The notes beneath the pieces are model-generated. The model did not search any database. It was not told the origin of the DNA and was given only the letters and a program-made list of their open reading frames with translations. Below, piece after piece: positions 9,782 through 47,925 of a DNA stretch of 50,300 nt; positions within the stretch are counted from its first letter, which is position 1; each line of letters opens with the position of its first letter. Both the position numbers and the translations under genes were made by a program. Source of the stretch: an uncultured archaeon (GTDB lineage: Archaea > Aenigmatarchaeota > Aenigmatarchaeia > CG10238-14 > SCSR01); contig CAYRSM010000002.1 of NCBI GenBank assembly GCA_964427125.1, positions 1 to 50,300 of the forward strand, in the 5' to 3' direction.

Positions 9782-9792
9782 AAATAGAGAAA

Positions 9793-10176
9793 CTACTTCT
9801 TTAGGATATAAACCGTGAGCCCCTTCGCGTCCTCCTTCTTGGAGTGCGGCAGGTCTATGGGCTGCACCTTGTCCGCGTTTACTAGCTCGTCCACATACTT
9901 CCTCACCGTGTTCCAGTTCACCCTCCGACCAAGCTTTCCCGATATCGTCTTGGCGATGTATGCTATGGTAAGGGGTGTGGCAGAGGAAGACAGGACATTG
10001 AGTATCTCGGACTGGATGAGGAACCTCTTGGACGGCCTGCCGCGTTTCGTGTGACTGCACCTTAGAATTATTATAATCTTTCCAAATATATTTGTTGCCT
10101 TGGGTACTGTGTTTTGAGTAGCCTGCCAACAACTTTCAGAACATTCGACAGAACTAACACTACATACTACATACAA
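9793..10176 (-). CDS. Small winged-helix DNA-binding protein, first gene of the polB operon
   Basis: The wHTH pattern is KRGRPSKRFLIQSEILNVLSSSATPLTIAYIAKTISGKLGRRVNWNTVRKYVDELVNADKV. Only one in-frame ATG/GTG/TTG exists (10176), so the N-terminal 40 aa are uncertain. The gap to the next gene is 11 nt. Confidence 0.55.
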   Translation of the reverse strand: MYVVCSVSSVECSESCWQATQNTVPKATNIFGKIIIILRCSHTKRGRPSKRFLIQSEILNVLSSSATPLTIAYIAKTISGKLGRRVNWNTVRKYVDELVNADKVQPIDLPHSKKEDAKGLTVYILKK

Positions 10177-22098: not shown

Positions 22099-25000
22099 CT
22101 ACTGCCACTTCTTCCTCAGCTCGTCCCACTTCCCGGTGCGCTGCATGCCGTTCTTGGCCTTCTTTCTGCCCCCGCTCATCAGGTATATCGCGAGCCCAGC
22201 CACACCCGCGGCTATCAGCACGAAGCCTATGATGGAAACAAGGGGCAGCTGCTGCGTGGGCGTCGTAGGTGTGACGCCTCGTCCAGTGACGTTGACCTGC
22301 GAGGTCACGTTAGCGGTGGTGTTGACGGGAGTAGCCGTGTTGGCCTGCCCGGCTATCGCGTAGGTGGAAAGGCCCGGCGACACGGCGCTGTAGTAGACAT
22401 AGTCGGTGCCCTCCGAGGTCTTGTTCGTAGGGAGAGCGTTCCACGCGCCGCCGGAGTACCTGTACAGTGTGACCGTCGAGTCGTTTATGCTGCTGCCGAG
22501 CCAGTTCTTCTCGACGTAAAAGTTTATCGTGACATTGTTTACGTCAGTGTCGGATATTATCGTGGGCACAATCTCGAAATAGTTGAATATGGGCCCGTTG
22601 ACGTTCTGCGTTATGTCTGACGGCTTTGAGGTGAGGGTGTCGATCACGATCTGAACGTTGTTCACGTTGTCGTTCGTGTTTACAACGAGGCTGCTGATGT
22701 AAAGACCTGCAACGTACCCTATAGGGACTTGGTTATCACCCTCTGTCATGTTGATTGCAACCGTGGCGGTCTTGTCGCCCGTGGTGACTGTGGGCGTGCT
22801 CGGGCCGGAAGAGACGCCCGGAGGCTGGCTTGCGGGACTAGTTACATTAACCATGATGTTGAATGCGGATATGTTGTTGAACCATGTGCCGACGGTGCCG
22901 TTAATCCGTATTGTATCCGTGCCGGCACTCGGTCCCGCGGTAACGTTCCAAGCTATGTAGCAGCCGCTGGAGTTGTATGCGCTGAGGTTAAATGTTACAA
23001 CCACGCTTGAAGTAGACGCTGCCCCGGTTGACCAACCGTCACAATTGGATAAAGCTTGTGAAATCGTTGTATAAGACGCATTTTTGCTGATTGTTACCTG
23101 TGCAGCAGATGCATTCATGGGGCCGAAATTTTGAACTGTCACATTGGCAGTATAGTATGTGCCCGGACCCGTGCCATTTGATATTGTATTTGTTGCGGTG
23201 CTTATTGGTGTGAAGTACAGCCCGGTGTTGTTGACGACCACAGGGAAAGTGCTGCCCGAACCTGTGAAGTTGAAGTTGTCGTTCCTGTTGAAAATCGAAG
23301 TGATGTACATCACGTACTGACCTCCTGGCGTGTTGGGAGGCAGGGTCGCGTTGAGGTTGTAGTATCCGCCGGCGTACATCGGCGAGGTGTCGTTTGTGAT
23401 GCCGGAAAGGCTGCCCTGCAACGGTATCCTTCCTGCCGAATTGGACAGTATGTTTGAGACGTTCCCCTCCTGCAGCCACACAGATGTGAAGTTGGACGCG
23501 CTGGTTATGCCCGTTTCGTTGGTGTCGTTCATGTACGAAGTGTAAAGTGCCACGGTCATGTTACCCCCCGTGGTGCCGTTCAGTACGCTCGTGCCGCCGG
23601 CCGAAGTTATGTTGAAAATGTTTATGTTCATGGAGTTTGTAAGGTTGAGCCTCACGGTGAGGTTGTAGGAAGCGTATGGGTGCGAGCTCAGGTTTGCCGA
23701 GCTGTTTGTGGCGTTGATGAATATCCAACCGTCATAGGTGCCGACAGGGAACGAGCTGTTGTACGAGACGTTTATCTGGATTAGCGCAAAGCCGTGGCTG
23801 GTGACGTTCGATGTCGTGTTGTAGGTCATGTTCGCGAAGAAACCGGAGCATAAGCTCGACGTGCATGTCAGGTTTGTGGAGTTCAGTGCCATGTTTATTG
23901 ACGAGTTGAAAGTGCCTATGTTAGTCAGGTTGATGGTGATGTTCCTGGTCAGGGTCGCTCCGTAATCCTCGTCTATCCTGAAGACATTCGAGCTGCCGGA
24001 TGCGTTGAATGGGTTTAGTAAATTTGGGGTGTTGCTCGCGTTCAGTACAAGCAGCGTCGGTGTGGTGACGTTGAAGACTATGGGTACGTTCACCCTTCCC
24101 CCGTTCTCATCTGTGAAAGTCAGATTTCCCTGATAGCCGCCGTCTATTGCCTGTGTAGGTACAGTGAGATTCACCTGGACTGACGTGTTCGACGAGAGGT
24201 TGTTGAGCGACGGCGTTGTGGAAACGCTGGTGTTCATCCAGTTGGTGGTGTTTTCAAAAGTGAAGACTGTGACGTTGAAGGGGTCGTTGCCCGAATTGTT
24301 GACCACAGACGCGTTCCAGTACCCTGGATTAGTGATTGTCGCTGTGTCGTTGTATAGTTCCAGAATACCCGCGTTAGAGACGTTGGCGAGGGTGTATGCG
24401 TTGCCTGACGTCATAACCAAGGTGCCCGCCGGGTCGTACACGTTGAGGGTATAGTTGCTCGCTCCAGTCCACGTAAGGTTGACCCTGACGCCCGACTCGG
24501 TGCCGGGGTCCCCGACCAAGAAGGCAAAGCTCCTATCACCAGTTCCGTTGAAAGACTGGACGCGGTACAGACTGCTCGACAGCGAGATGTTCCCTATCGC
24601 CAGCCCGCCCTGATTGGTAAGGTTCAGGTTGGTCGTGCCGATCGAGCCGCTTGCGTTCAGGTTCCCATAAGTCAGGCTGGAATTCGTGACGTTGAGCGTG
24701 GAAAATACAACCACTCCTGAGTAATTGATTGGCGAAGTCGAATTGCCGTATACCCTTATCTCCCACACGGCCGAAACGGACGGCGGGTAATTGTAGCCCA
24801 GCGACTGCGTAGCGCCGCCGCTCACGGACTCTGCCTTCATGCTTCCCGAACCGTCAAAGAGGAAAAGATGTGCAATGTTTGTGGCGCTCAGATTGACATA
24901 GACGGATGTCGCGTTGGGTACGGCCGAAGTGTTGAAATAGTAGGATTGATAAGTCGTTGCGTTTGCCGGCAGGGAACCGTTGAAGTTGGTTGCGCCCGTC

Positions 25001-25851
25001 GTCAAGTTTGTATTGCTTGTGTTCAGTGGCACGTCCACAAAGACGGCGACGCTCAGGTTTTCACCGTTGTTTGTCTGGTCCCTTATGGTAAGCTGCTGTA
25101 TCCAGTACCTGCCTGGGCTGCACGAGGTCGCGTTGGCTATGACAGTTATGTTAGCCGTGTTGTAGCCGGAGCTTCCATTTATAGGCCCTGTTACATTGCC
25201 GTATCCAGTGAGGTTTTGTGTCGCTAGGTAACCGCAGGTCAACTGAACGGAGTAGTTGCCGATGAACGCGGCTGTGGCGTTTATCATCTCCAGTGTTATG
25301 TTCGTGTTTCTGGTCCCGTTTGCTATAATGGTGATGTTCTGCTGATAGGCATTTGTCCAATTAAGATACGTCGTTGTCTGCACGGTTCCGAATTCACCGC
25401 CGTTACTGTCTGTGGGGGGAGCGACGCTGACAGTGTAGTTTGTCGTATTCTGAACACCCGATGTGTCCATCGTCGTTATAGTAATGTTTGTGACATTGAA
25501 AATTAACGAAACGTTGGCTTTGAAGAAGAACCACGCCGATGCGGAGCCGTTTATTATTCCCCCGGGCGTGGAATTCGTCCAGTTGGCTGTGGACGCAGAA
25601 CTGCTGAATGTCGTACTGCTGGCATTCGTGAAATTCGAACCAACAACGAAGACCATGCCGGCGGGCAGCGTGAAATTGGCGCGCGTTATGTTTGCCGAAA
25701 CGTTGTTGTTTGTTATCGTGACACTGAATGTCTGGTTGATTGCGGAAGTGGTTGCGTTCTGAGATGACGGGGTTGTTGAAAAACTGGCCGCGAAAACAAC
25801 GACGGAAAGAGCCAAAATGGCCACAGACAGAAGCAGATACACACTCCTCAT
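22099..25851 (-). CDS. Giant surface (S-layer-like) glycoprotein with a signal peptide, a PGF-pre-PGF-like domain and a C-terminal TM anchor
   Basis: The signal peptide is MRSVYLLLSVAILALSVVVFAASF. The 1250-aa protein is dominated by N/T/S, with about 100 N-x-S/T sequons by hand count. A C-terminal-proximal segment (FNYFEIVP...INFYVEKNWL...VTLYRYSGGAWNALPT...YVYYSAVSPGLSTYAIAG) fits the archaeal PGF-pre-PGF pattern. The TM is LPLVSIIGFVLIAAGVAGLAIYL, followed by GGRKKAK. Confidence 0.8.
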   Translation of the reverse strand: MRSVYLLLSVAILALSVVVFAASFSTTPSSQNATTSAINQTFSVTITNNNVSANITRANFTLPAGMVFVVGSNFTNASSTTFSSSASTANWTNSTPGGIINGSASAWFFFKANVSLIFNVTNITITTMDTSGVQNTTNYTVSVAPPTDSNGGEFGTVQTTTYLNWTNAYQQNITIIANGTRNTNITLEMINATAAFIGNYSVQLTCGYLATQNLTGYGNVTGPINGSSGYNTANITVIANATSCSPGRYWIQQLTIRDQTNNGENLSVAVFVDVPLNTSNTNLTTGATNFNGSLPANATTYQSYYFNTSAVPNATSVYVNLSATNIAHLFLFDGSGSMKAESVSGGATQSLGYNYPPSVSAVWEIRVYGNSTSPINYSGVVVFSTLNVTNSSLTYGNLNASGSIGTTNLNLTNQGGLAIGNISLSSSLYRVQSFNGTGDRSFAFLVGDPGTESGVRVNLTWTGASNYTLNVYDPAGTLVMTSGNAYTLANVSNAGILELYNDTATITNPGYWNASVVNNSGNDPFNVTVFTFENTTNWMNTSVSTTPSLNNLSSNTSVQVNLTVPTQAIDGGYQGNLTFTDENGGRVNVPIVFNVTTPTLLVLNASNTPNLLNPFNASGSSNVFRIDEDYGATLTRNITINLTNIGTFNSSINMALNSTNLTCTSSLCSGFFANMTYNTTSNVTSHGFALIQINVSYNSSFPVGTYDGWIFINATNSSANLSSHPYASYNLTVRLNLTNSMNINIFNITSAGGTSVLNGTTGGNMTVALYTSYMNDTNETGITSASNFTSVWLQEGNVSNILSNSAGRIPLQGSLSGITNDTSPMYAGGYYNLNATLPPNTPGGQYVMYITSIFNRNDNFNFTGSGSTFPVVVNNTGLYFTPISTATNTISNGTGPGTYYTANVTVQNFGPMNASAAQVTISKNASYTTISQALSNCDGWSTGAASTSSVVVTFNLSAYNSSGCYIAWNVTAGPSAGTDTIRINGTVGTWFNNISAFNIMVNVTSPASQPPGVSSGPSTPTVTTGDKTATVAINMTEGDNQVPIGYVAGLYISSLVVNTNDNVNNVQIVIDTLTSKPSDITQNVNGPIFNYFEIVPTIISDTDVNNVTINFYVEKNWLGSSINDSTVTLYRYSGGAWNALPTNKTSEGTDYVYYSAVSPGLSTYAIAGQANTATPVNTTANVTSQVNVTGRGVTPTTPTQQLPLVSIIGFVLIAAGVAGLAIYLMSGGRKKAKNGMQRTGKWDELRKKWQ

Positions 25852-26898: not shown

Positions 26899-27195
26899 TC
26901 ACTTCGCCAGGGTTATGGCAATCGTCGACACGTTCACCTTTCCCCTATCCTGAGAGTTCATCTCTTCCGTGCCTATGCTGATGTCGCTGATCTTTATGCT
27001 CTCCGCGCCGAACCTCCTCCTGATTATCTCGGCAACATCGACTGCTCTGGATATGGCTTTTCCCCTGGCTTTTATGTTAACCGCGTTCCTTCCGCCAGAG
27101 AACTGTGTCATTGCGGCCAAGACGTAAGCCATGGCGCCCTTCTTGCCTATGAATATCACGTCGTCAGCCATCCTGCTCTCTGTGTTTTCTGCCAT
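26899..27195 (-). CDS. albA: Chromatin/RNA-binding protein Alba
   Basis: DDVIFIGKKGAMAYVLAAMTQFSGGRNAVNIKARGKAISRAVDVAEIIRRRF is the canonical Alba core. Length is 98 aa. Confidence 0.9.
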   Translation of the reverse strand: MAENTESRMADDVIFIGKKGAMAYVLAAMTQFSGGRNAVNIKARGKAISRAVDVAEIIRRRFGAESIKISDISIGTEEMNSQDRGKVNVSTIAITLAK

Positions 27196-27313
27196 TGTTT
27201 TTGCCTCCCTTGTTTTCTCAGGCCTGCTATTTTGCAGGCGTAATTATCCTTAGTGGGTTGCTACACTTAAGCGTTGAACTTATAGGGGAACACCCGAACG
27301 TCATTCCCGCAGT

Positions 27314-27949
27314 TCAGATTATTCCCTCTTTGGTCAAAAAGCCGCTCACAAGCTCGAATATCTTTTTATGGCCGCCGGCGTTGGGGTGCACGCCGTCGAA
27401 CAGAAGTTTGCGGTAGTCTTCTTCCAGAAAGTGTTCCATCACCTCCACGAATCCGGCTCCGTTTTCCTTGGCGGCGATTTCTATTATACTGTCGAATTCC
27501 TTTACAAAGTCGTTGCGGTATGACGTGTTCGGCATCCAAAATAGGTGGGTCGCCTTTTTCTCGTCCACGGGAGTCAGTCCTATGAACACTATCTTCGAGG
27601 GCCTTTTGCGGGCGATGTCTATCAGTTTTCCCAGGTTGGATTTGAATCTTTGAGGACTGACCTTCGGACCCTCGTGCCCGCGTATCAATTCAGAGTCGTT
27701 GATGCCGACGGCAAAGACGACCACCATGTCCTCCTCTTCTGCTCTGATCTCGATTTCACGTTCGACGCGCTTGAGCAAATCCTCTGTCGTGTTACCATCT
27801 ACGCTCAGGTTGTAAATCATGCAGTAGAACTTCTGCTTCGTTGCGATAATCTTTTCGTCAACGAGCTTTCTCAGCCTGCCCGCCCAGCCGCCTTCCAAGT
27901 CCCACGAGCCGTGCGCTATACTGTCCCCGAAAATCAGGATTGCAGTCAC
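27314..27949 (-). CDS. SGNH/GDSL-family hydrolase
   Basis: Block I is ILIFGDSIAHG, block III is VFAVGINDS and block V is LFDGVHPNAGGH. The GTG start at 27949 overlaps the cbf5 stop (GTGA). The upstream part of the track ORF lies inside cbf5. Confidence 0.75.
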   Translation of the reverse strand: MTAILIFGDSIAHGSWDLEGGWAGRLRKLVDEKIIATKQKFYCMIYNLSVDGNTTEDLLKRVEREIEIRAEEEDMVVVFAVGINDSELIRGHEGPKVSPQRFKSNLGKLIDIARKRPSKIVFIGLTPVDEKKATHLFWMPNTSYRNDFVKEFDSIIEIAAKENGAGFVEVMEHFLEEDYRKLLFDGVHPNAGGHKKIFELVSGFLTKEGII

Positions 27950-28872
27950 ATTCCCCTCTCCACTATTACCCTGTCGGTCCTCAGAGCTACACCCTTCTTC
28001 CTCTCCTGCATCGATTTGCTGTTCATCTTGGCTATGCCGAACGCAATCAGCACGCTCCTGGGGTCGAACATGCACACGCTCTCGCCCTCTACAATGTTTC
28101 CGTCCGAACTATCTATCCCCTTCACGTAGAGCGGCGCGCCGTTGACTATCGACGGCACCGCAGAGTCCTTCACAAATATCTTTTTCACGTGCCCCACAGC
28201 ACGCTCTATCGGTATGAGCATCCTCCTGAGCCTCTCCTCGTCGCCGCCCTTCCAGAACTCGTAAGCGTCCTTCACCTCGAGCAGCGGGTGAGCATCTTCC
28301 TCGGTGAAATTTCCGGCAACAGTCCTCCTCAGCTCGCTCATGTGTGCGCCTGTCCCCAGAGCATTTCCCACGTCGGAGCACAGCTTCCTTATGTAGGTGC
28401 CCGCCTCGCAGCCGACCCTGAACAGGACGTCCTTCCCGCTCGCCTCGAGTATTTCGAAAAAGTAAATCTCCCTCTCGCGCTCCCTTCTGGCCACAGCCGA
28501 CTTCACGGGAGGGGTCTGTCTTATCTTTCCCAGGAACTTTTCGGATATCACGCTCCTGAGTGTTTCCTCTGACACCTCGTGGTGGACGTGCATAACTCCG
28601 ACATACTCCTTCCTCAGTCCCATCAGAAGGGGCATCACCTTCACGGAGTTGCCGAGTGCAATCGGAAGCACGCCCGTCACCGCCGGATCAAGTGTCCCAG
28701 CATGTCCCGTCTTGTTCACGCCGAATATGCTCTTGACCCAAGCGCTTATCTGGTGCGACGTTGGCCCGGAGTTTTTGTCGATTATTATTACGGAACTTTT
28801 AATCAGTTCCCCCATTGTCCTTTCTTCGGGAGGTTTGTATGTCGGAAGCTTGTTCACTTCTGATTCCTGCAT
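27946..28872 (-). CDS. cbf5: H/ACA RNP pseudouridine synthase Cbf5 (TruB family with PUA domain)
   Basis: IIIDKNSGPTSHQISAWVK, the catalytic GHAGTLDPAVTGVLPIALG, GTYIRKLCSDVG and a C-terminal PUA-like VKDSAVPSIVNGAPLYVKGI are all present. Confidence 0.9.
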   Translation of the reverse strand: MQESEVNKLPTYKPPEERTMGELIKSSVIIIDKNSGPTSHQISAWVKSIFGVNKTGHAGTLDPAVTGVLPIALGNSVKVMPLLMGLRKEYVGVMHVHHEVSEETLRSVISEKFLGKIRQTPPVKSAVARREREREIYFFEILEASGKDVLFRVGCEAGTYIRKLCSDVGNALGTGAHMSELRRTVAGNFTEEDAHPLLEVKDAYEFWKGGDEERLRRMLIPIERAVGHVKKIFVKDSAVPSIVNGAPLYVKGIDSSDGNIVEGESVCMFDPRSVLIAFGIAKMNSKSMQERKKGVALRTDRVIVERGM

Positions 28873-28924
28873 GGCAAGTCACCGAATTAAAATTTGTCAG
28901 GTATGATAAGATAAAACAAGATTA

Positions 28925-30007
28925 TCATCGTGTCAGTTGCGCCGCCCGTACAGTTTCGTAAAGCTCCGTTGCTTTCCCCTTTTCAAAGTGCTTTCTCACA
29001 GGCGTCAATATCTCGTCCAGGGCGAGAGCAGTCTCTTTTTTCAGGTCCATTGGGTGAAGCTTGCCGTCCCTGAACATGCTTTCGAGCTCGGCGTAATTGC
29101 GTACCTCCATGTCCCCCCCGAATTTTACCGGGCGCTTTATAATTCTAGACTGGAATTTCCTGAAGATTATGTACTTCCAGATTTCCATGACAGGGTTGTC
29201 CTCAACGACCTTTTCTGGGCAGAAAGCACCGTTTAGCTTCTTCTCGATGTCTGCTAGAGCGTCGTGTATAAAGATTGCCGTCTGGGGTTTGGACTTGCTC
29301 ATCTTGGCCTCCAGCTGCAACGTGGCTGTCTCCTGCCCCATCCTTCCCTTTCCCGGCCCCTGAAGACCCATTAGTAGGTGGTGGTGAACGCAGACTTTTG
29401 TCGGTTGTCTCAGTTTTCCCGCCACTTCCCTGGACAAAATGGTCGCGTGCCTCTGGTCCATTCCTAGCTGCAGTATGTCAGCTCCAAGGTAAAACGGGTC
29501 ACGCACCTGCATCATCGGGTACAACAATTGTGATGTGTATTGCATCTCGCTTTCCGCCCTGCCCATTATGGGGCTCGCCCTTATCGTCCTGTTGACTGTC
29601 ACGTTTTTCGCGACATCAATGACACCCTTCCAATATGCAGGGTCTTTCACAGCATCGCTTGCCCAGACTATCTTTATTTTGTCAGTGTCTACGCCGCATG
29701 CCTTCCACCCTTCGATGAAATACTCGCCAACTTTCTTCAACAGTTCGAGGTTTCCCCCCATCTTGTTGTTGATGTAGCCAAACCAGTCGGCTATGAAGAG
29801 CACAAAGTCCACCTTCGCCTCGAGCAGGTCGTTTAGTTTGATTGTGCGGAGGACGCTGGAACCCAAATGAAGCAGACCTGACGGTTCAAAACCGTCATAT
29901 GCGACTGGTCTGTCTTTTGTCTCCAGCAGTTCCCTCAGGTCCTGCTCTGTTATTATCTCCTCTGTGGGCGCGCGCTTTATGAGCTCGATCCTGTTTTCCA
30001 AATCCAT
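28925..30007 (-). CDS. tyrS: Tyrosyl-tRNA synthetase (archaeal type)
   Basis: AYDGFEPSGLLHLGS (HIGH-like), YPMMQVRD and KMSKSKP (KMSKS) are present. The C-terminal KFGGDMEVRNYAELESMFRDGKLHPMDLK closely parallels the remembered M. jannaschii TyrRS. Confidence 0.9.
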   Translation of the reverse strand: MDLENRIELIKRAPTEEIITEQDLRELLETKDRPVAYDGFEPSGLLHLGSSVLRTIKLNDLLEAKVDFVLFIADWFGYINNKMGGNLELLKKVGEYFIEGWKACGVDTDKIKIVWASDAVKDPAYWKGVIDVAKNVTVNRTIRASPIMGRAESEMQYTSQLLYPMMQVRDPFYLGADILQLGMDQRHATILSREVAGKLRQPTKVCVHHHLLMGLQGPGKGRMGQETATLQLEAKMSKSKPQTAIFIHDALADIEKKLNGAFCPEKVVEDNPVMEIWKYIIFRKFQSRIIKRPVKFGGDMEVRNYAELESMFRDGKLHPMDLKKETALALDEILTPVRKHFEKGKATELYETVRAAQLTR

Positions 30008-30056
30008 ACCCGTCGCTAAATAAACTTACCGCACACGCTAAGAAATAATTTAAAAA

Positions 30057-30266
30057 TCAGCTGAACCATCCCGGGAACCCGCCCGTCTGGCTTGGCGCGC
30101 TCGGGCTGCTCTGCGGACTGTATCCGGGGCCGTTCTTCCTGCACCCATCGCAGAGCCACTGCCTGCTGTGCTTGACCACGCACCTGCTGCACCCTATCCT
30201 TCCGCATCCCTCGCAGGACATCAGCTCGCTGGTCACGTTCCTGCAGGTCGGGCACTTCACTCCCAT
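30057..30266 (-). CDS. Small multi-Cys zinc-ribbon protein
   Basis: MGVKCPTCRNVTSELMSCEGCGRIGCSRCVVKHSRQWLCDGCRK. The ATG at 30266 directly follows the stop of the upstream flavin reductase gene. Confidence 0.5.
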   Translation of the reverse strand: MGVKCPTCRNVTSELMSCEGCGRIGCSRCVVKHSRQWLCDGCRKNGPGYSPQSSPSAPSQTGGFPGWFS

Positions 30267-30267
30267 T

Positions 30268-30801
30268 TCATCCTTTCCCCTCTGCCACAAGCTCGGAAAA
30301 CGACATCCTGATTGCCGGGCCGAGCTTCACCGGGTCGACCTTGCCTCCCGACACTATGCTGTCGTCCGCCTCTATCCTCACGACCTCCCCGAAGAGCAGC
30401 ATGTTCTCGCCGGTCTTCATCTTGTTCACAAGCCTGCACTCCATCCAGAGCTTTGCCTCCTTCGCCCGCTTCGAACCTATCATCGAAGAGCTGGTGCCGT
30501 TCAACCCTGATTCGGCCAGCTTGTCGATGCCGCGGGGGTATGTCTTTGAGCACGCCACGACCTTGTCCTGAAATTCCCTGGGAAGCACGTTGACGACAAA
30601 CTCCCCCTTCCTCAGGATGTTCTGGAAGATCTTGGAGCCGGGGTCCAGCACGAAAGCCAGCAGGCTCGGCGATGAGGATACCGGTATCATCGTGTCCAGG
30701 GGCATCGCGTCGGTGCCATCCAGACCGTCGTCGCATGTTATGAGGGCCAGGAGCCTCGGCAAAAGCACCTTTCCAAGATCCTTCGTGTCAATCATCATCA
30801 A
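30268..30801 (-). CDS. Flavin reductase-like FMN-binding domain protein
   Basis: The Flavin_Reduct pattern is present: LPRLLALITCDDG...MPLDTMIPVSSSPSLLAFVLDPGSKIFQNILRKGEFVVNVL. Confidence 0.7.
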   Translation of the reverse strand: MMMIDTKDLGKVLLPRLLALITCDDGLDGTDAMPLDTMIPVSSSPSLLAFVLDPGSKIFQNILRKGEFVVNVLPREFQDKVVACSKTYPRGIDKLAESGLNGTSSSMIGSKRAKEAKLWMECRLVNKMKTGENMLLFGEVVRIEADDSIVSGGKVDPVKLGPAIRMSFSELVAEGKG

Positions 30802-30864
30802 TAGTTATTTTGCGGGGATAAGGCTTAAGTGATAGGAAACCACAATTTTACTTAGTTGAATTCG

Positions 30865-31413
30865 ATGGATTTGTTCGGCAGGAAGAAGGTAGAGGTAAGC
30901 AGGGACCTGCAGGAGATAAAGGAGGCTGTGGACATACCGCTGCCCACAAAGGAGGACCTCGCGAATATAAGGCCGGGCGAGATGCGCAGGGAAGCCCCGA
31001 TGCCAGTTCCAAGAGCGGTTCCTGTCGCATCCGCTGCACCCATGCCTGAAGAGGCGCCGGCCGCAGAGGAAAGGCCGAAGCAACCAGTGGCGCCGATATT
31101 TATCAAGCTTGACAGGTATCACACGATACTCTCCTCGCTGACCGAGGTAAGGAAGGGACTAGACGCGATAAAGAACGTCTTCGCGTACATAAGCGAGCTC
31201 GAGAAGATGAAATCGGAGAGCTTCAAGATGCTGCACGACATGGTGGCAAAGATGGACAAAAAGCTCACTTACCTTGACTCGGAGTTCCTGAGGCCGCCTG
31301 GTTTCGAGGCGCCGGAGTCCCAGCAGGCGATGGAGCCGGGAAATCTGGAAGACATGATATCCAGCATGCGGGGAAAGATAGACGAGCTGAGGTCGCAGAT
31401 AGAGGGTATCTAG
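30865..31413 (+). CDS. Hypothetical coiled-coil protein with a Pro/Ala-rich N-terminal linker
   Basis: MDLFGRKK..., then PMPVPRAVPVASAAPMPEEAPAAEERPKQPVAPIFIKLDRYHTILSSL, then a helical C-terminal half. I recognise no family. Confidence 0.55.
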   Translation: MDLFGRKKVEVSRDLQEIKEAVDIPLPTKEDLANIRPGEMRREAPMPVPRAVPVASAAPMPEEAPAAEERPKQPVAPIFIKLDRYHTILSSLTEVRKGLDAIKNVFAYISELEKMKSESFKMLHDMVAKMDKKLTYLDSEFLRPPGFEAPESQQAMEPGNLEDMISSMRGKIDELRSQIEGI

Positions 31414-32273
31414 GCGAGCCGTTTCTTAAGGGTGGCATACCTTTTTAGTACGTCCTCGCGTTCCGCTATGCTCCTCGGGCCGATGTCCTCCACGACAAAA
31501 GATGCCGCAGCGGACGCAAATACAGCGGAGTCTACAACATCATTGGTATCAAAATATCTTGTCGCAAATGCCGTCCCGTAGACATCCCCAGCGCCGGTTT
31601 CGTCCACAACATTTGTCCTGAAGGCAGCCACCCTGTGAAGCTCCCCGTCGTACACCAGCGAGCCGTCTGCTCCGAATGTCAATGCGACTGTCTTTGCCCC
31701 GAGTGAATGCAGTTCCTCGCACACAGACTCAAAATCTTTTAGCCTTGACACCGAACCAATCTCGTTGCTCCCCACCTTTAGAAAATCCACGTGAGGCAGT
31801 ATTTCTTCCCGCTCATCAAAGAACTTTCCGACCACGCGTCCGCTTTTTTGGCTGCGTACAAACCCCTGCACGTCCAACGACAACACATCGCACAACTTCC
31901 TCGCCTTTTTGACCAGTTCGGAATCCACCTCGCCTAACATCGGGTTTATGTGGATGACGTCACTCTTGACATTAGTATGAAGTTCTATCTTCGCGGTGTT
32001 GCTCATCAGTGTCTGCATCCTGTCGCCGTGAGTGTAATCGTTGACAAACAGGGTTGAGTTCTTGTCTTCCTGTAGTTCTACCTTCACACCATCGCTTGCA
32101 AGTTTATCTATCCAGCCAGACAGCTCCGAGTTTCCGCTGCTCAGTATCTTGGACTTGCACCCCAGCCTCGCCGCGGCTATGCCCGAGTAGCTCGTCCCTC
32201 CGAAGGAGTGATTATCCCCGGATCTGGATCTTATTATGTCCTTGGTGATGTTCCCGACAACCAGAAATTCCAT
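31410..32273 (-). CDS. PfkB-family (ribokinase-like) sugar/nucleoside kinase
   Basis: The N-terminus is VVGNITKDII. The signature VDETGAGDVYGTAFA (DTxGAGD) lies near the C-terminus. Confidence 0.8.
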   Translation of the reverse strand: MEFLVVGNITKDIIRSRSGDNHSFGGTSYSGIAAARLGCKSKILSSGNSELSGWIDKLASDGVKVELQEDKNSTLFVNDYTHGDRMQTLMSNTAKIELHTNVKSDVIHINPMLGEVDSELVKKARKLCDVLSLDVQGFVRSQKSGRVVGKFFDEREEILPHVDFLKVGSNEIGSVSRLKDFESVCEELHSLGAKTVALTFGADGSLVYDGELHRVAAFRTNVVDETGAGDVYGTAFATRYFDTNDVVDSAVFASAAASFVVEDIGPRSIAEREDVLKRYATLKKRLA

Positions 32274-32384
32274 AATCTGATTATCGAAAGGAAGAAATAA
32301 ATGGAGGCCCTCCCACCACAGCAGAATAATATAAAAATACGCCCCGTTCTTCTGACGAGCGCATGAAATTCAAACTATACAGGT

Positions 32385-32618
32385 TTATTTGGGCTTGTAT
32401 TTTTTACATGCATCCCAGTACTCTTCCTTTTGTCTGTTCACACCCATTGTTTTTGGACTGTATTTGGGATGTTCGCATGAAGCATACCTGCCAGTCACCA
32501 CAACTGCCGCACCGCCTGCACAGTCGCCCATTTCTACATTGACACGCTCTCTGTCCCAATAGAAGCAGTCGCCGCACGTTTTCTTTAACTCTTTTATTCC
32601 CTTGTCCATTTGGTTCAC
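32385..32618 (-). CDS. Small Cys-containing hypothetical protein
   Basis: 77-aa ORF, CGDCFYWD...CAGG...CEHP...C. No family recognised. Confidence 0.4.
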   Translation of the reverse strand: MNQMDKGIKELKKTCGDCFYWDRERVNVEMGDCAGGAAVVVTGRYASCEHPKYSPKTMGVNRQKEEYWDACKKYKPK

Positions 32619-32688
32619 TCAATAAAAAAGCGAAACTAAACTTTATATGCTTTGGATGCAGGGGGTGCGATTCGAACGCACGAAGGGA

Positions 32689-32708
32689 ATGGTCTGATTT
32701 TGGATCAT
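32689..32708 (-). other. tRNA intron 3 (20 nt) inside the long variable arm
   Basis: The motif is GGTT|AG^A|TGAT-CCAAA-ATCA|GACC|AT^T. It has a 4-bp central helix (one G-U), two 3-nt bulges and a 4-bp closing hairpin, i.e. a textbook BHB. Confidence 0.7.
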
Positions 32709-32722
32709 CTAACCCAGCAGGT

Positions 32723-32771
32723 TTCTCATTATCATTCCCCTTAGGGTCAACGCTTAAGGGTTAGTGAGCAT
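32723..32771 (-). other. tRNA intron 2 (49 nt) at the canonical position 37/38
   Basis: The central helix is CTTA (nt 32-35) paired with TGAG at the intron 3' end, including one G-U. The bulges are AG^A and AA^A. An internal hairpin is CCCTTA/TAAGGG. No clean outer h' helix is present. Confidence 0.6.
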
Positions 32772-32778
32772 CTTAAGC

Positions 32779-32809
32779 TCCGCCGGGCACGGGTTTGCGC
32801 CAGTGCCCT
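32779..32809 (-). other. tRNA intron 1 (31 nt) at position 30/31 in the anticodon stem
   Basis: The intron is AGGGCACTGGCGCAAACCCGTGCCCGGCGGA. The bulges are AG^A and GA^G. The inner helix is GGGCAC/GTGCCC (6 bp). The central 4-bp helix CGGC/GGCG has one G-G mismatch, so this is a relaxed BHB. Confidence 0.6.
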
Positions 32810-32922
32810 CTGCCGCCATTGCCAGACTAGGCGACCCCTGCGATAAAATAGATTTGTATTCTTTCAGGCTTATTAGATGGTACTTTGAATAGACGACTCG
32901 GTGTGATGTCCTTTTCTGTCAG

Positions 32923-33576
32923 TCATGGCTGTTTTATAGCATTTCGGTACACAGCATCTATCTCAGATATTTTTTCGATTATCTGTTCCTTGAATTCCTC
33001 TCCGAGCCTTGGAAAACACTCTTCGATGTAGGAAGAAAGTTCACCAGCGTTAATGTCGGGGTATTCATACGCCCTTGCACCGATAAGCCATACAGAAGCC
33101 GCGACATCATCTTCCAATTTTTCGAATGTCATCCCTGGCAACTTTAGCATGGTTGTCATTGCCTGCAGGTTGGCTTTGCAATCGCATTCGATATAGCATG
33201 CAAGGCTTTTAGGGTAAGCATATTTCCTTCTGATAAGATGGGCGGCTGAATAAATGCCTTCGACATGGGCGGCTTCGTGCTCCACCGCAAACGAGATAGC
33301 ATTTCTGACTATCTGTGGGCACATTCTATAAACATGATAAATCCCCTCGAGAATATTTTGGCCTATTATTAAAACTGCATCCTCGAGTGAGGAGGGCGAG
33401 TCAGTAGCGCAGTCAACCGAAAGCATCGTATTGTGGGGGACGTTATACTGCTTGTGCAACGAAGGGTCGGGGTCAATACTTATGTACCTAAATCTTGGGT
33501 TAGTGCTTTCTATTAAGCCTAATATTGTTGCTTCTGCATCGGACACAGGTTGGCCCAGAGCTAATTTTTGTGACAT
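32923..33576 (-). CDS. Hypothetical protein with an HExxH metalloprotease-like motif
   Basis: The internal ATG at 33576 (MSQKLALGQPVSD...) is preceded by AT-rich sequence. The motif is FAVEHEAAHVEG. The upstream 91 codons of the track ORF are Arg/Pro/Ser-rich and overlap a plus-strand mini-ORF. Confidence 0.55.
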   Translation of the reverse strand: MSQKLALGQPVSDAEATILGLIESTNPRFRYISIDPDPSLHKQYNVPHNTMLSVDCATDSPSSLEDAVLIIGQNILEGIYHVYRMCPQIVRNAISFAVEHEAAHVEGIYSAAHLIRRKYAYPKSLACYIECDCKANLQAMTTMLKLPGMTFEKLEDDVAASVWLIGARAYEYPDINAGELSSYIEECFPRLGEEFKEQIIEKISEIDAVYRNAIKQP

Positions 33577-33697
33577 AAAAATACTTACTTCACAGTAGTA
33601 TTTAAAGGCGCAATTCCGCTGGTCTCTGACTGGTGGTTCTTTATATACTCTCCTCTCGTATAGAAGCTGATAGCAAACGTGCCTTGGTGGACGGAAA

Positions 33698-33808
33698 ATG
33701 ACAGGAGCGACTAATTGCCCGGACTGCAGGGAAAGCATCGCGTGGCAGCTGGCCGTATGCCCGAGCTGCGGCAAGGAGCTCGACACGGGCCTTTCCGACA
33801 TGGCATAG
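33698..33808 (+). CDS. 36-aa zinc-ribbon mini-protein (below the ORF-track size cutoff)
   Basis: Hand translation gives MTGATNCPDCRESIAWQLAVCPSCGKELDTGLSDMA. A GGTGG Shine-Dalgarno-like element lies 7 nt upstream. The region is locally GC-rich relative to its flanks. Confidence 0.35.
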   Translation: MTGATNCPDCRESIAWQLAVCPSCGKELDTGLSDMA

Positions 33809-33811
33809 GCT

Positions 33812-34135
33812 CTAGTCGATCTCGGAAGGGGCCTTTGGCGAGCGCACATTCATGATTATGCTCCTCGTGTCCTTGGCTGGGTAGATGCAATATGTTATGT
33901 CCGTGCCCCACTTCTTGTTAATCCTTTTGAATATCTCGCTCAGCCCCATGAAGTCCTCCTCTGTGAAGTGGATGACTCCTAGGTTCAGGTCGAACTCGAG
34001 CTTGCTCTTCTTTCCCCTGTAGAACTTCAGCGGTATCCTGCGGTAGAGCTTGAACTCAAACGCACGCAGTTCCCCAATAAGCTCGCCGAACATACTCTTG
34101 CTGGCGAACGGCTCCAGCGGGTCGAACCTGGGCAT
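33812..34135 (-). CDS. Hypothetical protein
   Basis: Clean 107-aa ORF (MPRFDPLEPFASKSMFGELIGELRAFEFKLYRR...). No family recognised. Confidence 0.45.
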   Translation of the reverse strand: MPRFDPLEPFASKSMFGELIGELRAFEFKLYRRIPLKFYRGKKSKLEFDLNLGVIHFTEEDFMGLSEIFKRINKKWGTDITYCIYPAKDTRSIIMNVRSPKAPSEID

Positions 34136-34174
34136 GACTAAAGATTGTGAAAGAATTCATAAAAGCGTTTGACT

Positions 34175-34720
34175 TTAGAAGCCAACGAAAAGCTTGTGCC
34201 TGTCCTTGCCTTCTATCTCGTCCAGCACGCGCTTCACCACGAGCTTCTTTATGTCCGGCAGCATAGGGACTCTCCCCTCTATGTCCTCGAAGCTCTCGAA
34301 CGGCTTCTTCTTCCTTTCGTCTATTATCGCCCAGAGGTGCTTCTTGCCTATGCCGTACATCAGCTCGAGGCTGTGCATGCGCGTGGTTATCGGCCCCGCC
34401 TTGTTGAAAAAGTCGACAAACTTCGCCTCGTTCTTTGTCACAAGCTCGTCCACAACCTCCTCAAGCATACCCTTCGCGTAGTTCGTCAACTCGTTGAGCC
34501 CCACCTTGCCCCTGATGAACTTCACCTCTGCCCTCTTCTCGCTGCCTATGTAGAGCCTGTCCTTCGCCTTTACGGTGATGCCTTCCCTGATGACTACCTC
34601 CAGCAGGTTGAAGTAGTTCTCGCCAACGCACTGCGCCACCGGTTCGGACCGCCTGTCGGTAGGCTTTCCAGTGGGGAAAAAATCTAGCACTATGATATAT
34701 TCGTCCTTCATCAGAATCAC
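34175..34720 (-). CDS. DUF655-family putative RNA-binding protein (conserved partner of rpoF/L21e)
   Basis: YIIVLDFFPTGKP...FNLLEVVIREGITVKAKDRLYIG... is followed by an HhH-like MHSLELMYGIGKKHLWAIIDERKKKPFESFEDI. The L21e-RpoF-DUF655 order is typical of archaea. Confidence 0.8.
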   Translation of the reverse strand: MILMKDEYIIVLDFFPTGKPTDRRSEPVAQCVGENYFNLLEVVIREGITVKAKDRLYIGSEKRAEVKFIRGKVGLNELTNYAKGMLEEVVDELVTKNEAKFVDFFNKAGPITTRMHSLELMYGIGKKHLWAIIDERKKKPFESFEDIEGRVPMLPDIKKLVVKRVLDEIEGKDRHKLFVGF

Positions 34721-34727
34721 CCGGCAA

Positions 34728-35054
34728 TCAGGTGCCGTTCTTGACTATCTCTACTATCTTGTCCAGCTCGTCTGCGGAGAACAGAGAGTATTCCTTCTGC
34801 AGGACGGCTCTCAAATCGTCCTTGTCTTGGGGCATCACGTTAATAATCTCGACAATCTGCCTGTCCCTCAGCTTGCCTACCGTCTTCAGCTCCTCGGCCA
34901 TCTTCTTTACATTTTCCAGCTTGCCCTTTGCGAACTTCTTCAGTATAGCAAGAGCGTTCTTCTGCTCGTACTTCGGCTCGGTGTCCTTCACCCTCTCCTC
35001 AAGCAGCTTCTTGGCCTCAGCGTCTGTTATTATCTGTTCGGACAGCACTTCCAT
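34728..35054 (-). CDS. rpoF: DNA-directed RNA polymerase subunit F (Rpo4)
   Basis: The 108-aa protein reads ...AEAKKLLEERVKDTEPKYEQKNALAILKKFAK...LRDRQIVEIINVMPQDKDDLRAVL. It lies between L21e and DUF655. Confidence 0.8.
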   Translation of the reverse strand: MEVLSEQIITDAEAKKLLEERVKDTEPKYEQKNALAILKKFAKGKLENVKKMAEELKTVGKLRDRQIVEIINVMPQDKDDLRAVLQKEYSLFSADELDKIVEIVKNGT

Positions 35055-35105
35055 GATTGTTCTACCTCTAACTTTATTGTTGTATTTCCCTCTTTAAAAA
35101 CCCCT

Positions 35106-35399
35106 TTAGAGCGCCTTTAGATGTTCGGGCCTGGATATGACGGTCTTCGTGGCGTTCCCGTCCCTGACCTCGATAAGGTAGGCGTTGCCCCTCCTTCCGG
35201 TTATCTTGCCGGCCTTGCCCCTGAACCTCGGGAACGGCATGCCCTTGTGGCTAGACGTCTCGGGTATTATGACAACATCCTGACCTACCGTAAACTCCTT
35301 CAGAAACTTCGTTATGGTCGGCCTATACCCGGGTTTTTGGCTTAGGCTGCTTCTGGTCCTCGCCCTGAACCCCCTTGTCTTCTTAACCATACCATTCAC
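35106..35399 (-). CDS. rpl21e: Ribosomal protein L21e
   Basis: KKTRGFRARTRSSLSQKPGYRPTITKFLKEFTVGQDVVIIPETSSHKGMPFPRFRGKAGKITGRRGNAYLIEV. Confidence 0.9.
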   Translation of the reverse strand: MNGMVKKTRGFRARTRSSLSQKPGYRPTITKFLKEFTVGQDVVIIPETSSHKGMPFPRFRGKAGKITGRRGNAYLIEVRDGNATKTVISRPEHLKAL

Positions 35400-36679
35400 T
35401 TCGTTACATGTACTTTAATAACATCTAGATTTATCTTTTTAACCTTGTTGTTTATGAGCTCCGCCACGCTAGGTCTTGTCCTCCCCTCGTCGCCGTTGAT
35501 AAGCTCCTTTATGTAGAGCCCGGATTCCGTCCTGACCTTGATTTTCATCTTTTTATCACCCACGACCTTCCAGGACATCTCCTTGACGGACCTCTTCCTG
35601 AACTTGTCCGACCTCCTGTGCAACACCCTGCGCGGGGTCTTCTGTAGTATTGGAGCATCCAGTATCTTTTTCAGCTCGTGCAGAACCCTCTTGTCTATTT
35701 TTGAGGCGAAAGCCACCTCGGCAAGATATGTCTTGTCATACCTATCGCTCTTCAGCTTCCTCACGACCTCCTTGCCGTTCTCAAGCAGCAGCTTCAGCCC
35801 CTTGACGTTGACCTTCCTGTTTTTGTTTATCTGTTTTTCTGCCTTCTTGACGTCAATGCTCCTTCTGGCGGGCTTTGAAATCTCCATGACGAACGGCCTC
35901 CAGTCAAAGCACCTGACGTCTATGTCCTCGCGGCCGTGCCCGTGGAAGAAAGACGTCTTGCCGTCTGCCGCCTTCAGCAGCGGAGCCTCGATTATCTGCT
36001 GTATGGACGTCGGGTACAGCGTGCCCCTTCCCTTGCACCTCACGCACCCCTTCCCCCCGCAGTCCGGGCAGACCCACCTCGTCTGCGGTATCCCCCTGAC
36101 GAGCTTCCTGTAGCCTCCCTCTATGAACAGGCTCCTCACGTTCAGGGATATCTTGCTGTTCTTTAGGTCCACATGGACAGTGACATCGGGGGTCTTGAGG
36201 GAGAACTTCCTGCCGGTCGCCTTCTCCAGCCTCTTGCCTATCTCGCGGTTCATCTCCGACTTTAGCGACTCCACGCCCTCTATGCCCACCTTCTCCCAGA
36301 CATGATTTTCCGCGTTCAGCATCTCGTCCGACGGCGACGACCCCACAAGGAAGGTGCCGTATTCCAGACCCTCAAGCCTCTTCGCGATCTTTGCGACGGT
36401 GCCGTCAAGCTCCGACTCGAAAAAGTTCCTGCAGACGAAGCACGCCTCCGGCTGCGGCGCGGATATCTTCGCGTTCCTGAACCTTATGCCGTACAGGTTC
36501 GATTGCTCCACCTGGAGCTGCTCGCCCATGTCGATGGACATCGCTATGTACGTCCTGAGCATCCTGCCCCTCTCCTCGTTAGTGTACCCGGAGAGGAGGT
36601 TGCCCACTATTCTCCCGAGGCAGTGGTCGCACAGGTACTTCTCCTTCAAAATCTCGATTATTTTATTCTTCAAATCCAT
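35396..36679 (-). CDS. pus10: tRNA pseudouridine(54/55) synthase Pus10
   Basis: An N-terminal Zn module (CDHCLGR...CFVCRN), a THUMP-like middle, CPDCGGKGCVRCKGRG, and the catalytic-region GREDIDVRCFDWRPFVMEI are all present. Confidence 0.85.
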   Translation of the reverse strand: MDLKNKIIEILKEKYLCDHCLGRIVGNLLSGYTNEERGRMLRTYIAMSIDMGEQLQVEQSNLYGIRFRNAKISAPQPEACFVCRNFFESELDGTVAKIAKRLEGLEYGTFLVGSSPSDEMLNAENHVWEKVGIEGVESLKSEMNREIGKRLEKATGRKFSLKTPDVTVHVDLKNSKISLNVRSLFIEGGYRKLVRGIPQTRWVCPDCGGKGCVRCKGRGTLYPTSIQQIIEAPLLKAADGKTSFFHGHGREDIDVRCFDWRPFVMEISKPARRSIDVKKAEKQINKNRKVNVKGLKLLLENGKEVVRKLKSDRYDKTYLAEVAFASKIDKRVLHELKKILDAPILQKTPRRVLHRRSDKFRKRSVKEMSWKVVGDKKMKIKVRTESGLYIKELINGDEGRTRPSVAELINNKVKKINLDVIKVHVTK

Positions 36680-38754: not shown

Positions 38755-38840
38755 TGCAGGAGGCCGGATTTGAACCGGCGAAGGGACTGACCCACGGGGT
38801 CCTAAGCCCCGCGCCATAGACCAGACTAGGCGACTCCTGC
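38755..38840 (-). tRNA. tRNA-Leu(UAG), intron-less, type II
   Basis: GCAGGAG TC GCC TAGTCTGGTCTAT GGC G CGGGG CTTAGGA CCCCG TGGGTCAGTCCCTTC GCCGG TTCAAAT CCGGC CTCCTGC A. All stems are perfect. Length is 86 nt and CCA is not encoded. Confidence 0.9.
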
Positions 38841-44438: not shown

Positions 44439-44610
44439 TTTCACACACATTCCCTGTCCCAAAACTGCTGCACGGTCTCTTCGTTCTTTCCCAGCTGTTC
44501 GAACTGCGACATAAAGTCTATTTTGGCTGTAAAAGAAGTTAAAAATTAAGGTCCGTCGGCTTTCCGCTTCAGGTATATTTTTATCCTTGATTCGACAAAA
44601 TCTAGTTTAT

Positions 44611-47819: not shown

Positions 47820-47925
47820 TGCAGGGGGAGAGATTTGAACTCTCGAAGGGACTAACCCACAGGCTCCTGAAGCAGACGCTGTATTTTCTACATCTGCGCC
47901 ATAGACCAGACTAGGCGACCCCTGC
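47820..47925 (-). tRNA. tRNA-Leu(CAG) with a 20-nt non-canonical intron at 29/30 (106 nt; 86 nt mature)
   Basis: GCAGGGG TC GCC TAGTCTGGTCTAT GGC G CAG[ATGTAGAAAATACAGCGTCT]GC TTCAGGA GCCTG TGGGTTAGTCCCTTC GAGAG TTCAAAT CTCTC CCCCTGC A. Removing the intron gives a perfect anticodon stem CAGGC/GCCTG. Confidence 0.8.
47874..47893 (-). other. tRNA intron (20 nt) at position 29/30 with a BHB motif
   Basis: The motif is GCGC|AG^A|TGTA-GAAAA-TACA|GCGT|CT^G. It has a 4-bp central helix (one G-U), two 3-nt bulges and a 4-bp hairpin with a 5-nt A-rich loop. Confidence 0.7.

Follow-up and report, generated by a model that had tools for sequence, protein, structure and literature searches.

A probable three-intron tRNA-Leu(UAA) gene in Aenigmatarchaeota, with a candidate wobble-methylation guide in its canonical intron

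The DNA analysed here, referred to as the window, is a whole contig of 50,300 bp (CAYRSM010000002.1) from a metagenome-assembled genome (MAG) of Aenigmatarchaeota (DPANN). On its minus strand, positions 32657-32841 (185 nt) very probably hold a genuine tRNA-Leu(UAA) gene split by three introns, two of them at non-canonical positions. The intron at the canonical position contains an antisense segment and a kink-turn (K-turn) layout, and we give a chance slightly better than even to the reading that it is an intron-borne, single-K-turn guide for 2′-O-methylation of the wobble nucleotide 34, as judged from sequence.

From 5′ to 3′ on the minus strand, the gene consists of exon 1 (32 nt, 32810-32841), intron 1 (31 nt, 32779-32809), exon 2 (7 nt, 32772-32778), intron 2 (49 nt, 32723-32771), exon 3 (14 nt, 32709-32722), intron 3 (20 nt, 32689-32708) and exon 4 (32 nt, 32657-32688). 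It starts with GCAGGGG UC GCC-UAGUCUGGCAAU-GGC and ends with GUGCG-UUCGAAU-CGCAC CCCCUGC A; the 7-bp acceptor stem, the D arm and the T arm are of normal form, with 100 surplus nucleotides between them. Exon 1 comprises the acceptor 5′ strand, the D arm, nt 26 and anticodon-stem nt 27-30 (GCAG), and is identical or nearly identical to that of orthologous Leu(UAA) genes. Intron 1, AGGGCACUGGCGCAAACCCGUGCCCGGCGGA, interrupts tRNA position 30/31 and is followed by a micro-exon, GCUUAAG, which provides nt 31-37 including the anticodon UAA. Intron 2 lies at the canonical position 37/38. Exon 3 (ACCUGCUGGGUUAG) carries nt 38-45 and the 5′ strand of the variable arm, intron 3 (AUGAUCCAAAAUCAGACCAU) falls in the variable-arm loop, and exon 4 completes the molecule with the variable-arm 3′ strand, the T arm, the acceptor 3′ strand and A73, CCA not being encoded.

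When 31 nt are excised in silico after GCAG, 49 nt after GCUUAAG and 20 nt after UGGGUUAG, an 85-nt class II tRNA is obtained, GCAGGGGTCGCCTAGTCTGGCAATGGCGGCAGGCTTAAGACCTGCTGGGTTAGTCCCTTCGTGCGTTCGAATCGCACCCCCTGCA, which ARAGORN calls tRNA-Leu(taa). Its anticodon arm is GCAGG-CTTAAGA-CCTGC, and the nucleotides conserved in tRNAs are present (U8, G18G19, the T-loop UUCGAAU and A73). The long variable arm, the discriminator A73 and the anticodon UAA are those of a class II tRNA-Leu. The 15-nt variable region, TGGGTTAGTCCCTTC, is the same in a Leu(CAG) gene at 47820-47925 of the window and is found in more than 30 Leu genes. An earlier, sequence-only reading of the window had proposed this very gene, and in-silico splicing, intron-motif scoring and comparative genes agree with its three introns, two of them non-canonical. 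Its coordinates and arithmetic (arms 185 nt apart, 31 + 49 + 20 nt removed to leave 85 nt) are exact, and the anticodon arm and the identity to the Leu(CAG) variable arm that it reported recur in the spliced product.

The codon UUA is rare but used, making up 18 of 632 Leu codons (2.8%) in 23 Pfam-supported genes, so that a Leu tRNA with U34 is needed. To locate tRNA genes irrespective of inserts, the window was scanned for a T arm accompanied by a perfectly complementary acceptor stem and a D stem. Exactly three loci were found in 50.3 kb, all of them Leu, and the three-intron locus is the sole Leu(UAA) gene on the contig.

Orthologues were collected by a 3′-exon pattern scan of GTDB genomes, which yielded 43 loci, mostly from Candidatus Aenigmatarchaeota MAGs of hot springs and groundwater, and three further loci came from a metagenome scan for variable-arm inserts. 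The introns occur in these genes in different combinations. Among Leu(UAA) genes, L018 has no introns, those of L002, L005, L006, L007, L012, L019 and L039 have the 37/38 intron only, and those of L017/L023/L036, L029, L034 and L035 have it together with a 30/31 intron of 13-24 nt. Among Leu(CAA) genes, the 37/38 intron is single in L003, L013, L025, L026 and L037 and is accompanied in L024, L044 and L046 by an intron at the same variable-arm site as in the window gene. The latter intron is 15 nt long and ends in ..AAAUAGACCA(U/A), and intron 3 of the window ends in ..AAAUCAGACCAU. Among the Leu(UAA)/(CAA) orthologues, only L018 and a divergent Micrarchaeota gene (L041) lack the canonical intron. 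All three introns occur together only in the window gene, within the sampled loci.

Genes with none, one or two of the introns have contiguous and identical exon sequence across each empty intron site. The micro-exon GCUUAAG is kept between differing flanking introns in five distinct two-intron orthologue genes. After splicing, the window gene shares 94% identity with the spliced L019/L035 and 87% with L018, which naturally lacks introns. Aligned by RNAalifold with 11 other genes, spliced or without introns, it keeps 24 of 24 consensus cloverleaf pairs; eight of these pairs covary, and T-stem pair 65:75 is a compensatory change found in the window gene alone. The inner helix of intron 1 is 100% paired across the genes having that intron, with three compensatory double changes between the window and the L017 group. 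Taken as sequence comparison, these data establish that the three inserts are genuine, selectively maintained introns of the bulge-helix-bulge (BHB) type.

The exact junctions rest on the orthologues and not on ARAGORN, because ARAGORN is too permissive: 125 of 147 variants with shifted junctions were still called tRNA. Comparison with intron-less exon sequence makes the junctions of introns 1 and 3 unique and those of intron 2 defined to within 1 nt (one A), the exon reading imposed by the orthologues being ...GGCAG|GCUUAAG|ACCUGCUGGGUUAG|UCCCUUC.... Each junction pair was then scored for BHB geometry, defined as two bulges of 3 nt, each preceded on its 5′ side by a 4-bp helix and cut after its second nucleotide. 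This explicit scoring was used in place of folding by minimum free energy, as an unconstrained fold of the 185-nt precursor gave no BHBs and preferred a duplex between intron and anticodon loop.

At intron 1, the central helix CGGC/GGCG has three of four pairs, the bulges are AG^A (5′) and GA^G (3′), and the inner helix GGGCAC/GUGCCC (6 bp) and an outer helix of 2 bp flank them. At intron 2, the central helix is CUUA/UGAG, formed by C32-A35 with 32725-32728 (4/4), with bulges AG^A and AA^A and an inner helix of 1 bp; its outer helix is the anticodon stem, which has 1 bp in the unspliced precursor and 7 bp without intron 1. At intron 3, the central helix GGUU/GACC is complete (4/4), the bulges are AG^A and AU^U, the inner helix UGAU/AUCA has 4 bp and the outer helix 1 bp. 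Introns 1 and 3 thus belong to the relaxed class HBh′, and intron 2 to hBH once intron 1 is gone. The sequence-only reading had described junctions 2 nt into 3-nt bulges separated by a 4-bp helix, AG^A at every 5′ bulge, one mismatch in the central helix of intron 1 and no clean outer helix for intron 2. All of this was recovered at the three fixed junction pairs, the weakness of intron 2 arising because intron 1 interrupts the anticodon stem. Its description of intron 3 as a textbook BHB has to be given up, the outer helix being just 1 bp and the motif a relaxed HBh′ type.

BHB motifs alone prove nothing, because loose BHB-like motifs are as common in shuffled sequence (11.8 ± 5.3) as in the real 185 nt (13; not significant). 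Motif counting against shuffles was therefore replaced by a conditional probability per junction: the chance of BHB geometry at an independently fixed junction pair is ~0.0015 (611 of 400,000 random pairs in window DNA). The frequency of loose motifs in shuffles and the tolerance of ARAGORN for shifted junctions are what could be said for a fortuitous origin, in which the 185-nt spacing of acceptor-like and T-arm-like sequences is a coincidence and 'introns' were picked to give a cloverleaf. The probability of that is negligible, given that the insert-agnostic scan yields three loci per 50 kb, all Leu genes, that the exons are 87-94% identical to independent orthologues, and that the junctions were set by these orthologues rather than chosen. 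The orthologue evidence excludes it.

Every intron site in these Leu genes follows AG (GCAG^, A36G37^, UUAG^), and most introns start with AUG or AGG. The AG-preceded sites may reflect a preference of the endonuclease or a target preference in intron spread.

Several points weigh against a functional three-intron gene. The outer helices of introns 1 and 3 are merely 2 and 1 bp, and the central helix of intron 1 has a G.G mismatch, which recurs in four of five genes, the helix of L035 being perfect. Because of these short outer helices and this mismatch, a broad-specificity endonuclease would be required, and no gene for the archaeal splicing endonuclease EndA was found on the contig (Pfam) or in any collected related locus. 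Expression signals are weak: a TATA-like UAAUAA centred ~32 nt before the mature 5′ end (within 32842-32880, minus strand) is a putative promoter by sequence resemblance only, and a T6 stretch 27-33 nt downstream of the gene (within 32620-32656, minus strand) is a putative archaeal oligo-T terminator. Finally, a second, uninterrupted Leu(UAA) gene elsewhere in the genome is possible.

The relaxed BHBs with very short outer helices, the rarity of UUA and the fact that only 50 kb of the genome is visible would also suit a decaying tRNA pseudogene with insertions, which is not spliced while another gene supplies Leu(UAA). We regard this as very unlikely. The exons are without defect, all 24 pairs being retained, and the T-stem change is compensatory, not disruptive. 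BHB geometry bounds all three inserts, at a chance of 0.0015 each, and several diverged MAGs have kept these introns, whose helices covary. Moreover, the contig has no other Leu(UAA) gene. A genuine gene with three introns accordingly remains by far the preferred reading.

Standard tools do not report it. Of the tRNA genes on the contig, default ARAGORN and the Rfam tRNA model detect just Leu(UAG) (38755-38840), which is uninterrupted, and an Rfam scan of the three-intron locus at E ≤ 10 gave no tRNA match. When ARAGORN is relaxed (-i -ps90), it reports a tRNA-Trp(cca) with a single 102-nt intron at exactly 32657-32841. The expectation of the sequence-only reading that standard finders may miss or mis-annotate the gene was thus borne out on both counts. 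Although the Trp(CCA) parse matches the ends of the locus, it is extremely improbable as an account of the gene. It is seen solely at the lowered threshold, its anticodon stem is mismatched (g.a, a a), its anticodon would fall inside the variable-arm intron, and the same ARAGORN mode miscalls the multi-intron Leu genes of relatives likewise. The comparative data contradict it, as the body is of Leu type and matches the Leu orthologues.

The intron mode of ARAGORN calls the intron-bearing Leu genes of relatives Phe, Ser, Pro, Ile, Val or Thr (L001, L009, L014, L016, L017, L020, L023, L027, L029-L031, L034-L036, L041 and L042), and the tRNA inventories of those related MAGs are likely to be wrong. 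In MAGs of Aenigmatarchaeota from hot springs, it also gives a 'tRNA-Pyl(cta)' call containing an intron of 24 nt (L026, 6147-6266; L038, 5723-5842; L040, 1059-1178), which is probably a mis-parsed multi-intron tRNA and no real Pyl tRNA. Crenarchaeota/Euryarchaeota and Thaumarchaeota supplied the training data for the BHB models of tRNAscan-SE 2.0 (PMC8450103).

Splicing of the precursor is most likely ordered, as far as the sequence allows this to be read. The gene would be transcribed as a pre-tRNA of at least 185 nt. By the established pathway, EndA would cut 2 nt into each 3-nt bulge and an RtcB-type ligase would join the exons; RtcB was not found on the contig (Pfam) or in the collected related loci. 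With intron 1 in place, the anticodon stem is split and the outer helix of intron 2 incomplete, and simultaneous cutting of introns 1 and 2 would release exon 2; intron 1 should therefore be removed before intron 2. The proposed order is intron 1 first, intron 3 independently and then intron 2. As CCA is not encoded, it would be added post-transcriptionally. Sequential BHB formation in closely spaced introns has been documented in other archaea (PMC8450103).

Intron 2 reads 5′-AUGCUCA CUAACC CUUAAGC G UUGA CCC-UAAG-GGG AAU GA UAA UGAG AA-3′. Its segment CUUAAGC (32752-32758, minus strand) is complementary to tRNA nt 31-37, in a register that is constant in 20 of 20 genes. Directly 3′ of it, a K-turn layout can be read at 32729-32750 (minus strand), composed of a box D′-like UUGA (32747-32750), a hairpin CCC-UAAG-GGG (32737-32746) and a box C′-like AAUGAUAA (32729-32736). 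At the sequence level, the K-turn parts are a 3-bp C-stem, the 3-nt bulge AAU, tandem G.A/A.G pairs, and then U.U and A-U. The UGAG that follows is the BHB strand. Neither this element nor the difficulty posed by the 7-nt micro-exon figured in the sequence-only reading.

The 20 distinct Leu(UAA)/Leu(CAA) genes were compared in a register table, of which the L013 row was read by eye. In all 20, counting upstream from an NNGA box (UUGA in 16, CAGA in two, CUGA in one and AUGA in one), it is exactly the fifth intron nucleotide that pairs with nt 34, and a RUGA box follows 3-11 nt after that NNGA box. All 20 orthologues keep GA in D′ and UGA in C′, the boxes being degenerate outside these core nucleotides, while orthologous introns differ freely in the 5′ segment (2-18 nt) and in the spacer (3-11 nt). 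Between the boxes, the orthologues have loops of 3-8 nt, which is a K-loop layout, and the window has the hairpin of a K-turn layout, both as judged at the sequence level.

Pairing is conserved as well. In the antisense helix, 95.4% of cells are paired, as against 16-61% in slid controls, and there are compensatory changes at nt 31 (G-C/A-U) and at nt 34, where UAA genes have U-A and CAA genes C-G. The composite motif occurs once in the window, where 0.02 are expected, and 13 times in 412 kb of collected DNA, all inside Leu genes. The element is absent from the introns of Leu(UAG) genes and from the 29/30 intron of the Leu(CAG) gene of the window. With introns 1 and 3 removed, the conformer with the antisense duplex (-48.4 kcal/mol) and the BHB conformer (-47.1 kcal/mol) are nearly isoenergetic and mutually exclusive. 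A neighbouring block, CUAACCC (32758-32764, minus strand), is complementary to the variable-arm 5′ strand GGGUUAG and also occurs in the introns of L012, L017/L023/L036, L029 and L034; joined to the antisense of the anticodon loop, it could give a nearly continuous duplex of 13 bp from which nt 38-45 loop out. The 13-nt antisense CTAACCCTTAAGC has no trans target in the 412 kb of collected DNA.

The hallmarks of a D′/C′ guide are the box C/C′ RUGAUGA and D/D′ CUGA, sheared GA pairs, a loop uridine and the fifth-nucleotide rule (PMC7994747). The two GA dinucleotides of the core boxes are present in intron 2, in D′ UUGA and C′ AAUGAUAA. If the element is a guide, it would act in cis or as an excised and circularised intron. 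CUUAAGC would pair with nt 31-37 of the anticodon loop, with the K-turn, a putative L7Ae site, directly following. U34 would then lie opposite the fifth nucleotide upstream of D′, the position that is methylated by a fibrillarin/Nop5 ribonucleoprotein (RNP). Because the guide duplex and the BHB share anticodon-loop nucleotides and are nearly isoenergetic, methylation in the guide conformer would precede splicing in the BHB conformer, as in Haloferax pre-tRNA-Trp. In the window gene, this would impose an obligatory order around the 7-nt micro-exon, namely intron 1 removal, guide duplex and BHB switch. For the phylum as a whole, we put at even chances the proposal that the canonical intron of Leu(UAA)/(CAA) is a minimal single-K-turn D′/C′ guide directing Um34/Cm34 before splicing.

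A number of features argue against a guide. The antisense duplex is 7-8 bp instead of the usual 10-12, the D′ box UUGA departs from the consensus CUGA, and there is one K-turn or K-loop per intron without a terminal C/D pair. The two K-turns of all described archaeal sRNAs (terminal C/D plus internal C′/D′) are thus not both present, and the shortest introns (27 nt) have no room for a second D′/C′ pair. An Rfam scan of the locus at E ≤ 10 gave no match to a C/D family. Common descent of the intron could account in part for the constant register. On its sequence, the element is accordingly better not counted as a canonical C/D sRNA; it may work in the manner of a half-mer or single-domain guide.

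These features could also be accommodated if K-turn and antisense are real and yet do not guide methylation, serving instead in L7Ae binding or RNA structure, whether by holding the micro-exon and anticodon loop, by timing splicing or by stabilising the excised or circularised intron, or being kept mainly by descent. The single K-turn, the short duplex and the non-consensus box speak for this, the register would be partly inherited among homologous introns, the antisense helix would tether the micro-exon, and its competition with the BHB would suit a timing role. This alternative is a real possibility, if a less probable one than a guide in the window intron. It has to contend with the fifth-nucleotide rule, which holds in 20 of 20 genes despite the variable 5′ segment and spacer. 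The element is also limited to the UAA and CAA isoacceptors, whose wobble nucleotide is a predicted target of Pyrococcus C/D sRNAs (PMC7994747), and single-domain C/D guides can be functional, with Drosophila as at least one case (cited in PMC7994747).

The sole described case of a guide embedded in an intron is that of tRNA-Trp (PMC11408192). The intron of pre-tRNA-Trp resembles the Leu introns in its canonical position, in having an antisense to its own anticodon loop beside D′ with nt 34 at N+5, and in its mutually exclusive guide and BHB conformers. However, the Trp intron has all four boxes (C, D′, C′, D) of a double-guide sRNA and U39 as a further target, whereas the Leu(UAA/CAA) introns, as candidate guides, are 27-49 nt long with one K-turn or K-loop and a duplex of 7-8 bp. 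A K-loop beside a self-antisense was also looked for in tRNA-Trp and tRNA-Met introns; the collected loci contain no such gene. Wobble-nucleotide methylation by stand-alone C/D sRNAs has been predicted in Pyrococcus for precisely Leu(CAA), Leu(UAA), Met and Trp (PMC7994747). The Leu isoacceptors, nt 34 and the guide logic are the same there as here, but the Pyrococcus guides are trans-acting, independent genes with two K-turn motifs, in contrast to a candidate cis guide in the intron of its own target.

Three introns are the documented maximum per archaeal tRNA gene, known from Thermoproteales (PMC4033280, PMC8450103, PMC3239211), in agreement with the placing of this gene at the upper end by the sequence-only reading. 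That reading had drawn on Thermoproteales and ultrasmall acidophilic archaea; the parallel in multiple introns stands, but the host belongs to Aenigmatarchaeota and is neither a member of Thermoproteales nor an acidophilic ARMAN. In Thermoproteales such as Pyrobaculum calidifontis and Thermofilum pendens (Sugahara et al. 2007/2008, cited in PMC4033280 and PMC8450103), close introns are likewise removed sequentially and similar introns occur across isoacceptors. The host here is from DPANN and not a crenarchaeon, the Thermoproteales endonuclease is (αβ)2 with an L1 loop whereas the window contig itself has no EndA, and the gene described here has one intron in the long variable arm, a 7-nt micro-exon and a canonical intron with K-turn and antisense. 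The three-intron type is thus already known, and this gene stands out by an intron in the variable arm, by its micro-exon and by the splicing order that the latter would impose.

Some DPANN, namely ARMAN-2, likewise have multiple and non-canonical introns (PMC3239211), and tRNA disruption in DPANN has been linked to the ε2 EndA or to an α4 EndA with an L3 loop, the tRNA sets being incomplete (PMC5829648, PMC3239211). ARMAN-2/Micrarchaeota (ε2 EndA) and other DPANN (α4, L3 loop) resemble the present case in their multiple non-canonical introns and relaxed BHBs, and in tRNA sets that are incompletely predicted by standard tools (PMC3239211, PMC5829648). In ARMAN-2, the reported maximum is two introns per gene (PMC3239211), as against three here. 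The analyses in PMC3239211 and PMC5829648 did not cover Aenigmatarchaeota, and full-text literature searches gave no description of multi-intron tRNAs in Aenigmarchaeota.

The assignment of the host agrees with the relatives of the tRNA gene and with the contig TyrRS, whose next relatives are at 79-80% identity and below, some of them named Aenigmarchaeota or Aenigmatarchaeota. The contig also encodes Cbf5, Pus10, Alba, IleRS, PolB, P0, L21e and Rpo4. The neighbourhood of the tRNA gene (26899-36679) is RNA-related, with Alba, Cbf5 (TruB/PUA), TyrRS, DUF655, Rpo4, L21e and Pus10. Synteny of the TyrRS neighbourhood is not conserved in the closest relatives, L047-L049, and no orthologous tRNA was obtained from them. 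A Pfam search found no L7Ae, Nop5 or fibrillarin on the contig. With hand-entered probe sequences, L7Ae was detected at most a few kb from the Leu tRNA gene in eight Aenigmatarchaeota loci (L005, L006, L017, L019, L023, L028, L034 and L035), and fibrillarin in L028 as well.

The only three tRNA genes of the contig are all Leu and lie on the minus strand over 15 kb: UAA (32657-32841), UAG (38755-38840) and CAG (47820-47925). The Leu(CAG) gene is itself interrupted, by a 20-nt BHB intron at position 29/30 (47874-47893), with a central helix GCGC/GCGU (4/4), a 5′ bulge AG^A and an inner helix of 4 bp; it is missed by default ARAGORN and Rfam and detected by ARAGORN -i. Among the metagenome loci, L045 (contig Ga0265296_1084475) has at ~670-860 a class II tRNA-like gene of ~175 nt (GCGGGGG...CTCCCGCA) with several inserts, including one at the variable-arm site. 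Elsewhere in the window, three large open reading frames are without Pfam match, at 22099-25851 (minus strand, 1250 aa), 44587-46788 (plus strand, 733 aa) and 8666-10132 (minus strand, 488 aa), and two adjacent, divergent genes encode AAA_14/DUF4143 ATPases, at 1531-2898 (minus strand) and 2996-4255 (plus strand).

For annotation, the sole tRNA on the contig able to read UUA is invisible to default ARAGORN and Rfam. The tRNA complements of Aenigmatarchaeota, and the 'missing tRNA' and genetic-code inferences drawn from them, would be wrong unless multi-intron parsing is used, and the same problem probably extends to other DPANN MAGs.

The gene would extend the three-intron maximum of archaeal tRNA genes from Thermoproteales to a DPANN phylum, would add a variable-arm intron site and a micro-exon forcing the splicing order to the known cases, and predicts a broad-specificity endonuclease in these archaea. 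If intron 2 does guide methylation, it would be the first intron-borne methylation guide outside tRNA-Trp and a natural archaeal C/D guide with one K-turn. Retention of a tRNA intron would then be tied to wobble methylation in a second tRNA family, and these introns of 27-49 nt with one K-turn would offer a very small natural system for C/D RNP assembly and for the order of methylation and splicing.

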